Shown one piece after another: positions 53,902 through 60,493 of a stretch of DNA of 64,000 bases. How positions within the stretch are numbered: the first letter of the stretch is position 1; the number at the start of each line of letters is the position of its first letter. Made by a program: the position numbers and the translations under genes. Source of the DNA: Candidatus Nitrosocosmicus sp. (GTDB lineage: Archaea; Thermoproteota; Nitrososphaeria; Nitrososphaerales; Nitrososphaeraceae); assembly GCA_031177355.1 (NCBI GenBank), contig JAPSGR010000002.1, positions 34,161 through 98,160 on the forward strand, in the 5' to 3' direction. The notes under the pieces are model-generated. The model did no database searches, was not told where the DNA came from, and saw nothing but the letters and a program-made list of their open reading frames with translations.

Positions 53902-55047
53902 ATGAGAAGAGTTGACTCAAGAAAACAAAAACTCCTAACAAAACTAGGCACATTGACCTCAAAGACCAAAGCAAGGGGACAATTGACAGCAATAATCGAC
54001 AAGCCCGAAGACATATTTTACTATACTTGTTATTGGGGAGAAGGCATACTGATCATGAAAGAAAACGAAGAAAGTAAATTGATTGTTCCGAGATTAGAAT
54101 ATTTAAGAGCAGTAAGTTCATCAAAGGAATGTGACATTGTATCTTCAGAAAGAGGAAAAGGATTAACAAATTCGCTTTTGAAACATCTCGGATCAGATAA
54201 TATTGTATGCTATGGTGGCAATGATTACTGGACAGCTAATATCATTGCCAAACAAGTTGGAAAGAGAAATTTGATTCTAGGTGAAGAACAATTGAAGAAG
54301 GTCAGAGAAATCAAGGATAAACAAGAAATTGAAACTATCAAAAATGCATCCAACATTATTGACAAATTATTTGAAATTGCTAAAAAAGAAATTAAAATCA
54401 ACATTTCTGAGGAGGAAATTCAGTCCATTTTGGTATACGAGGCTATGAATCGTGGTGCTAGATTTCCAAATTATCAGTTTACCTCTAACCCTCTAATAGT
54501 TGCAAGCGGACCCAATGGCTCATTTCCTCATGCTGAAACTTCTTCGAGAAGGATCAAGAATGGTGATTTTGTTGTACTAGATATTACACTAAGCTACAAT
54601 CACTACATTTCGGACGCAACAAGGACATTTGGAGTAGGAAAGATATCTAAAAAAATGCAAGACGCGTATAATTTAGTAAAACATGCCCAGGAAAGCGCGA
54701 TTGAAAGAATAAAATCTACGAACAACTTTGCTGAAGTCGATTTAGAGGGTAGAAAGATAATCCAGGAAGGTGGATACGGCGATTTTTTCATTCATTCTAC
54801 AGGTCATGGAATTGGATTAGAAGTCCATGAATTACCTTGGATTAGACCGCAGACATACACCACAATCAAAGAAAATATGACAATAACAATCGAACCTGGG
54901 GTGTACATTGAGAACAAATTTGGAATAAGGATTGAAGATAGTTTATGTATAACTACAAAAAGGAATTCCAAAAAAAGATTAAGTGAATTTGATAGATATG
55001 ACTATATCAATTTTCACAAATTCGATAAAAGTTTAATTGTGATATGA
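53902..55047 (+). CDS. Xaa-Pro peptidase (M24B)
   Basis: IVASG, PH, D...Y.SD.TRT, HSTGHGIGLEVHE, TIEPGVY and GIRIED motifs. Confidence 0.92.
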   Translation: MRRVDSRKQKLLTKLGTLTSKTKARGQLTAIIDKPEDIFYYTCYWGEGILIMKENEESKLIVPRLEYLRAVSSSKECDIVSSERGKGLTNSLLKHLGSDNIVCYGGNDYWTANIIAKQVGKRNLILGEEQLKKVREIKDKQEIETIKNASNIIDKLFEIAKKEIKINISEEEIQSILVYEAMNRGARFPNYQFTSNPLIVASGPNGSFPHAETSSRRIKNGDFVVLDITLSYNHYISDATRTFGVGKISKKMQDAYNLVKHAQESAIERIKSTNNFAEVDLEGRKIIQEGGYGDFFIHSTGHGIGLEVHELPWIRPQTYTTIKENMTITIEPGVYIENKFGIRIEDSLCITTKRNSKKRLSEFDRYDYINFHKFDKSLIVI

Positions 55048-55099
55048 TATAATTTATTTAACAAACGATCAGTCATAGTTTATGACTATATAATATTCA

Positions 55100-55168
55100 T
55101 TGGGGATGAAGTATTTCGCTGCTCCAGTCTGAGCATGACAATGATGACCCTGCGACGAGCTGACCCAA
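55100..55168 (+). ncRNA. Box C/D 2'-O-methylation guide sRNA (candidate)
   Basis: Terminal stem TTGG(G)...CCCAA; box C-like GGGATGA 55103-55109; D' CTGA 55129-55132; perfect C' ATGATGA 55141-55147; 12-nt guide; box D CTGA 55160-55163. GC-rich island in AT-rich intergenic DNA. Confidence 0.75.
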
Positions 55169-55415
55169 AATATAAGCAATTAGATGTTAATAATGCATAT
55201 ATATAACAATCACAATAGTAGGTCGATATATTACTAACCATAACTCCTTTTTACAGTATCTCACTTTGACAAGTTCATTTGAAAAGTATACTTTCGATTT
55301 AAAATGACGACTAAAAGAGTTACTATGAGTAACTCATAAGAAAAATATCTTCAACATTGTTCTAAAGTCTAAATCGCAAGGTTAAATTAAACATTAAGAA
55401 GTATAATATAACTAA

Positions 55416-56297
55416 ATGGAACTTGTCTATGATTATCCACTCTATCGACCGCCATCTGAATCACGTTCATTGATATTCCAGGTCACTTTGGGATGTTCCT
55501 TCAATAAGTGTTCGTTTTGTAACATGTATAGAACAAAGGACTATTCGGAGAGGCCTCTAGATGAGATTTTTAAAGAGATTAAACTTATGGCAAAGTATTT
55601 TCCTAATACTAGACGGGTGTTTTTGGCTGATGGGGATGCTATGAATCTAGCGACTGAAAAATTAATTGACATAATTTCTAGAATAAGGGAAAATTTTGGT
55701 TCTATAGAGAGAATCTCCTCGTATTCTATGCCCAAGAACTTGCTCCAAAAATCTCCTCAGGAATTAAAGTCTTTGAAACAGGCAGGATTAGACATGATAT
55801 ACTTAGGTATAGAGAGCGGAAATGACAAGATATTGAAAAAGGTTACGAAGGGTGCAACTTCTAAAATGATCATTGAGAGTTGCCAAAAGGCAAAGGATGC
55901 AGGATTCATTCTTTCTTGCATGATAATCTTAGGATTAGGGGGAAAAACATACACTAAGGAACATGCAAAAGATACTTCCAGGATAATAAGTACAATTTCC
56001 CCGGATTTTGTAGGTGCCTTGACTTTATATATGGAGCCAAATATTGAAGAAGAATTTTATGAGAAATTTGGAGAACAATTCATACCGCTTGAAGACAATG
56101 AAGTTTTAGATGAATTGTATTGGTTAATAGAGGATATCAATCTATCAACTGATTCAATTTTTAGAGCAAACCATGCTTCAAATGTTTATGCTATCGGAGG
56201 TACACTACCCAAAGACAAAGGAGAAATATTACAAAAAATTGACCAGTTAAAAGGGCATCCCGAATTATTTAAGCCCAAAGTACTAAGGAGGTTTTAA
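55416..56297 (+). CDS. Radical SAM protein of unknown function
   Basis: YRPPSE..SL..QVTLGCSFNKCSFC (CxxxCxxC), FLADGDA, GIESG and FRANHASN motifs. Confidence 0.9.
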   Translation: MELVYDYPLYRPPSESRSLIFQVTLGCSFNKCSFCNMYRTKDYSERPLDEIFKEIKLMAKYFPNTRRVFLADGDAMNLATEKLIDIISRIRENFGSIERISSYSMPKNLLQKSPQELKSLKQAGLDMIYLGIESGNDKILKKVTKGATSKMIIESCQKAKDAGFILSCMIILGLGGKTYTKEHAKDTSRIISTISPDFVGALTLYMEPNIEEEFYEKFGEQFIPLEDNEVLDELYWLIEDINLSTDSIFRANHASNVYAIGGTLPKDKGEILQKIDQLKGHPELFKPKVLRRF

Positions 56298-60015: not shown

Positions 60016-60120
60016 GGCCTTCGTAGTATAGCCTGGTTAGTATAGGCGGCTGTGGATCGCGTCTTACATTGTGTCGTGGACGGAAACCGCTTGAGGAGGG
60101 TTCAAATCCCTCCGAAGGCC
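60016..60120 (+). tRNA. tRNA-His(GUG) with encoded G-1 and a 30-nt intron at 37/38 (60056-60085); CCA not encoded
   Basis: Acceptor GCCTTCG/CGAAGGC with G-1:C73; anticodon arm GGCGG-CT-GTG-G|A-CCGCT; T-arm GAGGG-TTCAAAT-CCCTC; complete bulge-helix-bulge motif. Confidence 0.96.
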
Positions 60121-60493
60121 CTCCTAAATTTAGTTGATTTGTTAATGCAAGATAAGCACCTTCTTGGACTGCCTATTTTGACAAAATTCTAATGTAAAGA
60201 TATTTAATAAGATTATATTTCCTTTTCTTCAAGCAAACAGAATGAGATTATTAGTCTGAAAGGAGACAATTTGATCATTTATCATCGTCTTTTTTTGTAT
60301 GTCCAAATAAATATATTCTAACAATTATGCAACAAAAATAGCATTTTATATGTTTTATATATGTCAAGGCTAGTAATCTGTAAAACAGTAAAATTTCCTT
60401 GATATTATATTTGCAAGGGCCCAGATCATATTTATAATCAGCCCGATTTACTAAACATTTACATTTTATCTACAGGATAAGAGAACATTGCAA

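Follow-up and report, generated by a model that had tools for sequence, protein, structure and literature searches.

The ribose methylation of G2251 in the P-loop of 23S rRNA (Gm2251, E. coli numbering) is among the very few that are common to all domains of life. In E. coli it is made by RlmB, in H. marismortui (Gm1950) by fibrillarin with a guide RNA, and it is also guide-made in yeast (Gm2619), human (Gm4196) and Arabidopsis (PMC11542601). Guides for G2251 are predicted in three of seven archaea by Dennis et al. (2015, BMC Genomics 16:632, PMC4644070); guides for G2520 are predicted in three hyperthermophilic archaea, and their partner guides are directed at U2544, G2546 or G2490 (consensus numbering). 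Additional file 1 of the same paper contains Sac-sR110, an abundant small RNA of S. acidocaldarius (RNA-seq coverage 5636), which was published without a predicted target for either of its guides (NP/NP). Concerning the ammonia-oxidising archaea (AOA), these are absent from a 2021 review of archaeal C/D sRNAs, and our literature search found no paper that combines C/D sRNAs and ammonia oxidisers. The initial annotation of the locus presented here had held that descriptions of such RNAs in AOA are few, which agrees with this search; the family to which the RNA belongs, however, is already known in archaea through Sac-sR110.

The locus is found in the window that was analysed (the whole stretch of DNA, 64,000 nt, from a Candidatus Nitrosocosmicus genome), and we hold with high confidence that it encodes a functional dual-guide box C/D sRNA. 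Its features are presented in Table 1; the full read on the plus strand is UUGGG-G-AUGAAGU-AUUUCGCUGCUCCAGU-CUGA-GCAUGACA-AUGAUGA-CCCUGCGACGAG-CUGA-CCCAA. The C-D'-C'-D layout with a terminal stem, as proposed in the initial annotation, is confirmed, with every listed motif in its place and a stem of 5 bp. Also correct are the description of a GC-rich island (52% GC in the element, 20-25% in the surrounding spacer) and the two N+5 positions, C55124 and A55155. In box C, R-U-G-A and G6 are kept, the departures from the consensus are at positions 5 and 7, and G55108 and A55109 are the sheared G.A partners. The internal D' and C' boxes are both present and lie one 8-nt linker apart, as in a second K-turn or K-loop. 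The predicted fold is as stable as those of shuffled sequences (z = -0.36), which is expected for open guide regions and unlike a riboswitch. The element was rightly called unannotated: no Rfam family reaches its gathering threshold for the element or anywhere in the window. The sub-threshold scores for the element are 19.9 bits for snoPyro_CD (RF00095; threshold 45), 14.2 bits for sR39 (RF01122; threshold 50) and 17.9 bits for SNORD31, the alignment of the last resting on the P-loop guide beside box D'.

Table 1. Features of the predicted box C/D sRNA; positions are those of the window and rRNA numbers are those of E. coli.
Feature	Position	Strand	Remarks
Whole predicted box C/D sRNA, 69 nt	55100-55168	+	Match of covariance model R1; sharp conservation edges
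Terminal (C) stem, 5' half, UUGGG	55100-55104	+	Pairs with 55164-55168
Box C, AUGAAGU	55106-55112	+	Variant of RUGAUGA; GAUGA-N-G invariant in relatives
5' extension of the D' spacer, AUUUC	55113-55117	+	Non-conserved, variable in length; without target complementarity
D' guide, GCUGCUCCAGU	55118-55128	+	Complementary to the 23S P-loop, 5'-GCUGGGGCGGC-3', 2247-2257
Box D', CUGA	55129-55132	+	Invariant within the genus
D'-C' linker, 8 nt, K-loop	55133-55140	+	Sequence varies
Box C', AUGAUGA	55141-55147	+	NUGA-N-GA conserved
D guide, CCCUGCGACGAG, 12 nt	55148-55159	+	Complementary to helix 89, 5'-CUCGUCGCGGG-3', 2456-2466
Box D, CUGA	55160-55163	+	C-[U/C]-G-A across all relatives
Terminal stem, 3' half, CCCAA	55164-55168	+	Pairs with 55100-55104

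Concerning the register of box C, a reading as GGGAUGA (55103-55109) was considered and rejected; AUGAAGU is preferred because of the kink-turn geometry, the covariation between boxes C and D and the box C of relatives with a 12-nt spacer. In the AUGAAGU register the stem UUGGG/CCCAA directly abuts box D, and the 5-bp C-stem is followed by a 3-nt bulge (G-A-U) and then by the tandem G.A pairs. Position 5 of box C and position 2 of box D covary among the 25 distinct homologs (AU in 11, GU in 10 and GC in 2). The terminal stem is paired in 95% of cells and its outermost pair alternates between UA, AU and GU; none of 500 shuffles has a covariation score as high, and the slid controls collapse. 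The non-AOA relatives carry GAUGAUGU or GAUGAUGA at the position of box C, followed by a 12-nt spacer, and the box C of Sac-sR110 falls in line with AUGAAGU as well. With box C placed at AUGAAGU, the C-D' spacer is 16 nt long, not 19 nt as first annotated, while the C'-D spacer has the canonical 12 nt. Across the ammonia oxidisers the D' spacer varies from 15 to 22 nt, against about 12 nt in typical archaeal RNAs; in the non-AOA Thermoproteota homologs that were read it is mostly 12 nt.

A relaxed four-box pattern with archaeal spacings matches twice in the 2.32-Mb genome (both strands) and not once in any of 40 genomes that were shuffled locally, so the architecture is not due to chance. A looser scan for box C, box D and the stem gives nine matches compared with 3-10 in shuffles; its top matches look real, but without enrichment the scan cannot be used as a genome-wide finder of C/D RNAs. 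Based on BLAST, the element is present in 31 of the 33 congeners and, beyond the genus, in two further genera of its family as well as in a second family. Alignment of 34 relatives reveals a conserved block of about 68 nt which is sharp at both ends and whose flanks are unrelated. Covariance model R1, for which 25 distinct sequences were used, scores 90.7 bits at the locus, which is its sole match both in the window and in the genome. Across the order, R1 matches 186 of 251 genomes, nearly always in single copy (144 of the 177 high-quality genomes; 54 of 72 genera), and across a sample of the phylum 81 of 201 genomes. Conservation of the boxes in relatives, on which the initial annotation had made its reading depend, is observed for all four (C, C', D' and D), and the element is a single-copy RNA in most of the sampled ammonia-oxidising archaea. 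In the deep-branching families (f7, f10, f11, f12, f15, f17 and f19; L089-L098) the D spacer has 13 nt; in deep-branching families, too, a hairpin with as many as 9 bp takes the place of the D'-C' linker.

The assembly (a MAG, 97% complete, 131 contigs, 33% GC) contains no 16S or 23S gene, and aragorn finds only 20 tRNAs in it, many of them with introns; searches for RNA targets within the assembly are therefore blind. Both guides, searched exactly and with G.U pairs tolerated, give only background-level matches in their own genome and none in rRNA, as the MAG lacks the 16S and 23S genes. Target rRNAs were taken from the operons of three complete congeners (G012, G015 and G028) and of G048, which belongs to another family, and were numbered by alignment to E. 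coli rrlH (NC_000913). Mismatch-only pattern searches of the congener rRNA retrieved neither target, since they count G.U pairs as mismatches; a wobble-aware scan finds both in domain V of 23S rRNA, 212 nt apart. The D' guide forms a duplex of 11 bp (8 Watson-Crick and 3 G.U) with the LSU of all four genomes, and its fifth base, C55124, is opposite G2251 of the P-loop. In the LSU of the same genomes, the D guide finds an unbroken match of 11 bp (10 Watson-Crick and 1 G.U); its target lies at the start of helix 89, on the 5' strand and just past A2451, with A55155 opposite U2460. A placement of the D target at E. coli 2510-2520 was rejected on the basis of the rrlH alignment. Also rejected was the anticodon loop of tRNA-Ser(GGA) as a target of D', where the register would point to position 35; none of the aragorn tRNAs has a match. 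An aragorn prediction of a tRNA-Ser(GGA) in the window (60017-60121, plus strand, with a 30-nt intron) is not at Rfam gathering level.

The initial annotation could identify no target from the window. This is true of the organism's own assembly, which lacks rRNA genes, but no longer of the guides themselves: comparison of the guide complements with rRNA, which had been put forward as a check, yields the two 11-bp matches in the congener LSU. The suggestion that the long D' spacer might serve a non-rRNA target finds no support, as only its 3' 11 nt are conserved and exactly these pair with the P-loop. Complementarity alone is only moderately significant, shuffled guides reaching an equally good site in 16S plus 23S rRNA in 74 of 3000 cases for D and in 349 of 3000 for D'. 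An in-register match to the pre-specified G2251 is far less likely to arise by chance, and the comparative evidence for the targets is much stronger than complementarity alone.

All 14 LSU genes that were read from the order have the same P-loop target, and nearly all have the same helix 89 target. The D' guide itself hardly varies. Within the paired core of both guides (positions 2-11; 34 homologs at genus level and 31 at order level), nearly all substitutions are C/U exchanges opposite a target G, by which pairing is kept. Conservation of the D' spacer ends at the 11th nucleotide, where complementarity also ends, and the D' register places position 5 on G2251 in every one of 31 diverse homologs. 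Looking at single genomes, position 3 of the D guide in G044 (L085) is changed from G to A and C2458 of its own 23S rRNA (L102) is changed to U, a compensatory change between guide and target. In about 20 families the conserved cores of the guides have their match in rRNA sequence that is invariant. Taken from these sequences, G2251 is highly likely to be the target of the D' guide and U2460 is probably that of the D guide, and it is very probable that the RNA guides the methylation of two riboses next to the catalytic centre of the ribosome. U2460 is not among the known conserved sites of methylation; the 13-nt D spacer of the deep-branching families would place the predicted site at G2459 instead, so the exact site of the D guide is less certain.

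As described in the initial annotation, the sRNA lies between an Xaa-Pro peptidase gene of the M24 family (53902-55047) and a radical SAM gene (55416-56297; 293 aa), both on the plus strand. The radical SAM gene is linked to the sRNA across genera of the Nitrososphaeraceae (L059-L078), where the sRNA precedes it by 45-70 nt on the same strand; the peptidase neighbour is confined to the genus. For the radical SAM protein, no NCBIfam cut-off is reached. No archaeal TATA/BRE that is convincing by eye is found at -26 of the sRNA. An inverted repeat, GUCAUA-guu-UAUGAC, is located 12 nt upstream of it (55071-55088, plus strand) and is similar in the closest congeners (G015 and G023); it could be the terminator of the peptidase gene or a processing signal.

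Concerning the protein partners, the assembly contains an adjacent nop5-fibrillarin pair at G000:C24 (fibrillarin 280 bits, Nop domain 227 bits). The motifs, the kink-turn covariation, the conservation, the 23S targets and this gene pair all uphold the original reading of an archaeal box C/D guide sRNA with two N+5 guides. From what is established for archaeal C/D RNPs, we infer that L7Ae would bind the terminal kink-turn (stem UUGGG/CCCAA, box C AUGAAGU and box D CUGA) and the internal C'/D' K-loop, and that Nop5 and fibrillarin would then assemble on the L7Ae-bound transcript. By sequence, the D' guide pairs with the P-loop so that G2251 is the fifth paired nucleotide, and the D guide with the 5' strand of helix 89 so that the fifth is U2460. 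Fibrillarin would then 2'-O-methylate both riboses during large-subunit assembly, producing Gm2251 and Um2460. Tethering of the two segments of the peptidyl-transferase centre, which are 212 nt apart, may also aid their folding; such a chaperone role, joining the P-loop and helix 89, is inferred more weakly.

The position of the element would allow it to act in cis, as part of the 3' UTR of the M24 gene or of the radical SAM leader: it lies 52 nt past the stop of the peptidase on the same strand and, in the other genera of the family, at the distance given above from the same radical SAM gene. A 51-aa ORF on the minus strand (55086-55241) also overlaps it. Nitrosopumilaceae-type genomes, however, keep the element without either neighbour, and the fold, which is no more stable than shuffles, is unlike that of a riboswitch. 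The ORF has no Pfam hit, conservation stops inside it and the indels are not multiples of three; the chance expectation for the motif is about zero per genome. We therefore regard an element that is not trans-acting, whether a cis element, an ORF or a chance motif, as extremely improbable. A genuine C/D sRNA that acts physiologically on targets other than rRNA (tRNA, mRNA or another sRNA) is also highly improbable. Several matches of 10-12 nt exist in the genome itself when G.U pairs are allowed, and archaeal C/D sRNAs with tRNA targets are known (PMC7994747); but the genome-wide matches are at background level and, by comparison of coordinates, none falls within the 20 aragorn tRNAs. The additional nucleotides at the 5' side of the D' spacer are neither conserved nor constant in length, and what is conserved, the guide cores, matches invariant rRNA in the families mentioned above.

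The methylation reading itself faces three points of uncertainty: the 16-nt D' spacer, the 3 G.U pairs in the 11-bp D' duplex and the 13-nt D spacer of the deep-branching families. Experiments in vitro indicate that archaeal C/D RNPs need a 12-nt spacing to methylate efficiently. The D' spacer, with 15-22 nt in all ammonia oxidisers instead of the canonical 12, and the G.U pairs would suit a genuine C/D RNP which acts mainly as a folding chaperone of rRNA, tethering the P-loop (H80) to helix 89, and for which methylation at one site or at both is inefficient or dispensable. It would also suit such an RNP that the register of the D guide slides by 1 nt between lineages while the paired segment is unchanged, and chaperone roles of dual guides are discussed in PMC7994747. 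However, the strict retention of the D' register on G2251 in all 31 diverse homologs, the guided methylation of G2251 in other archaea and in eukaryotes, and the presence of fibrillarin make it improbable that chaperoning is the main function; moreover, chaperoning complements guided methylation and does not exclude it. Guided methylation of both sites is the reading that we prefer.

A wider proposal, which we put forward only tentatively and consider rather unlikely, is that the dual guide for the P-loop and helix 89 is an ancient part of the core guide set of the Thermoproteota, selected mainly to clamp together two strands of the peptidyl-transferase centre during 50S assembly, and that the AOA have relaxed the 12-nt spacer rule. 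If this were true, the AOA spacer of 15-22 nt would represent a eukaryote-like flexible geometry, and the Nop5-fibrillarin of AOA would tolerate or loop out the extra nucleotides. The P-loop guides that have been noted in DPANN archaea might also be related to it.

Other candidates are found elsewhere in the assembly. The second match of the four-box pattern is located outside the window, at G000:C55:92842-92914 (plus strand), and reads UGAUGUC-A-AUGAUGA-(14 nt)-CUGA-(10 nt)-AUGACGA-GGAUUAUGAGUA-CUGA-GACAUCA, with a perfect closing stem of 7 bp. Judged by these motifs, a further C/D sRNA is very likely here; its D guide was found to have no good match in rRNA. Two C/D-like candidates, also outside the window, have closing stems of 5-7 bp (G000:C83:24547-24614, plus strand, and G000:C7:684-750, minus strand); they come from the loose scan, which is not enriched over shuffles. 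Their D guides form 10-11 bp with the congener LSU (at about 2001) and SSU (at about 1180).

For the globally important ammonia-oxidising archaea, the result is a well-supported family of box C/D guide RNAs. These mesophiles probably make the Gm2251 of the P-loop by an RNA guide and not by a stand-alone enzyme. Model R1 could be used to annotate the gene in hundreds of genomes, and the conserved long D' spacer offers a natural test case for the archaeal 12-nt spacing rule. No new kind of system is revealed; the relevance of the findings is to annotation and to the modification of the archaeal ribosome.

Compared with the known families, the AOA element aligns end to end with snoPyro_CD (RF00095; model positions 1-58) and has the same four boxes and a GGG/CCC closing stem; the guides of the two, however, are unrelated, and the AOA element has an insertion in the D' spacer. 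A much closer likeness is seen with Sac-sR110, whose sequence is GAUGAUGA-CGCCGCUCCAGU-CUGC...CAACGCGACGAG-CUGA. The guide cores are the same and in the same order (D' ...GCCGCUCCAGU, D ...GCGACGAG-CUGA), and one of the non-AOA matches of R1 is nearly identical to Sac-sR110. The matches of R1, which was built from AOA sequences, thus include Sac-sR110 (G350 and G371, family f38). The combination of a P-loop guide at D' and a helix 89 guide at D is common to Sac-sR110 and about 15 non-AOA homologs in the Thermoproteota. Differences between the two RNAs concern the spacers and boxes: Sac-sR110 has 12-nt spacers, a degenerate D' box (CUGC), UGAUGU as C' box and, at first look, no obvious GGG/CCC closing stem, whereas in the AOA RNA the D' spacer is 16 nt long, both internal boxes (D' and C') are canonical, a stem of 5 bp closes the molecule, and U replaces C where the guides face a target G. 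Based on their sequences, we regard the AOA RNA as an ortholog of this expressed orphan sRNA of the crenarchaea. The targets proposed here fit Sac-sR110 too, and the Sulfolobus orphan would thereby gain assigned targets in the P-loop (G2251) and helix 89.

In some non-AOA Thermoproteota (L132, L135 and L143; G420, G298 and G361) the P-loop guide is accompanied by a different second guide, GGAAGAGCCGAG, so that partner guides appear to have been swapped in evolution. This second guide is similar to Nanoarchaeum NeqsR04; its complementarity is to the CGGCUCUUCC segment, which lies in domain V of 23S rRNA.

The P-loop guides of other organisms, i.e. human SNORD31, yeast snR67, the haloarchaeal Gm1950 sRNA and the G2520 guides of hyperthermophiles, share with the AOA RNA the same N+5 nucleotide, G2251; for SNORD31 and snR67 the assignment follows general background and the Rfam alignment, and PMC11542601 confirms guided methylation of the site as such. 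Beside the box, the Rfam consensus of SNORD31 has ...CCCCAGU-CUGA where the AOA element has ...CUCCAGU-CUGA. The partner sites are different: that of yeast snR67 is U2724, unlike in the AOA RNA, and those of the hyperthermophile guides also differ from the site of the AOA helix 89 guide. The eukaryotic P-loop guide RNAs are, in addition, longer, intron-encoded and nucleolar. The E. coli enzyme RlmB gives the same product on the same universally conserved nucleotide (Gm2251), but it is a protein-only enzyme of the SpoU type and uses no guide RNA. The AOA RNA belongs to an old family of the Thermoproteota which includes Sac-sR110, and the guide class itself is well known.
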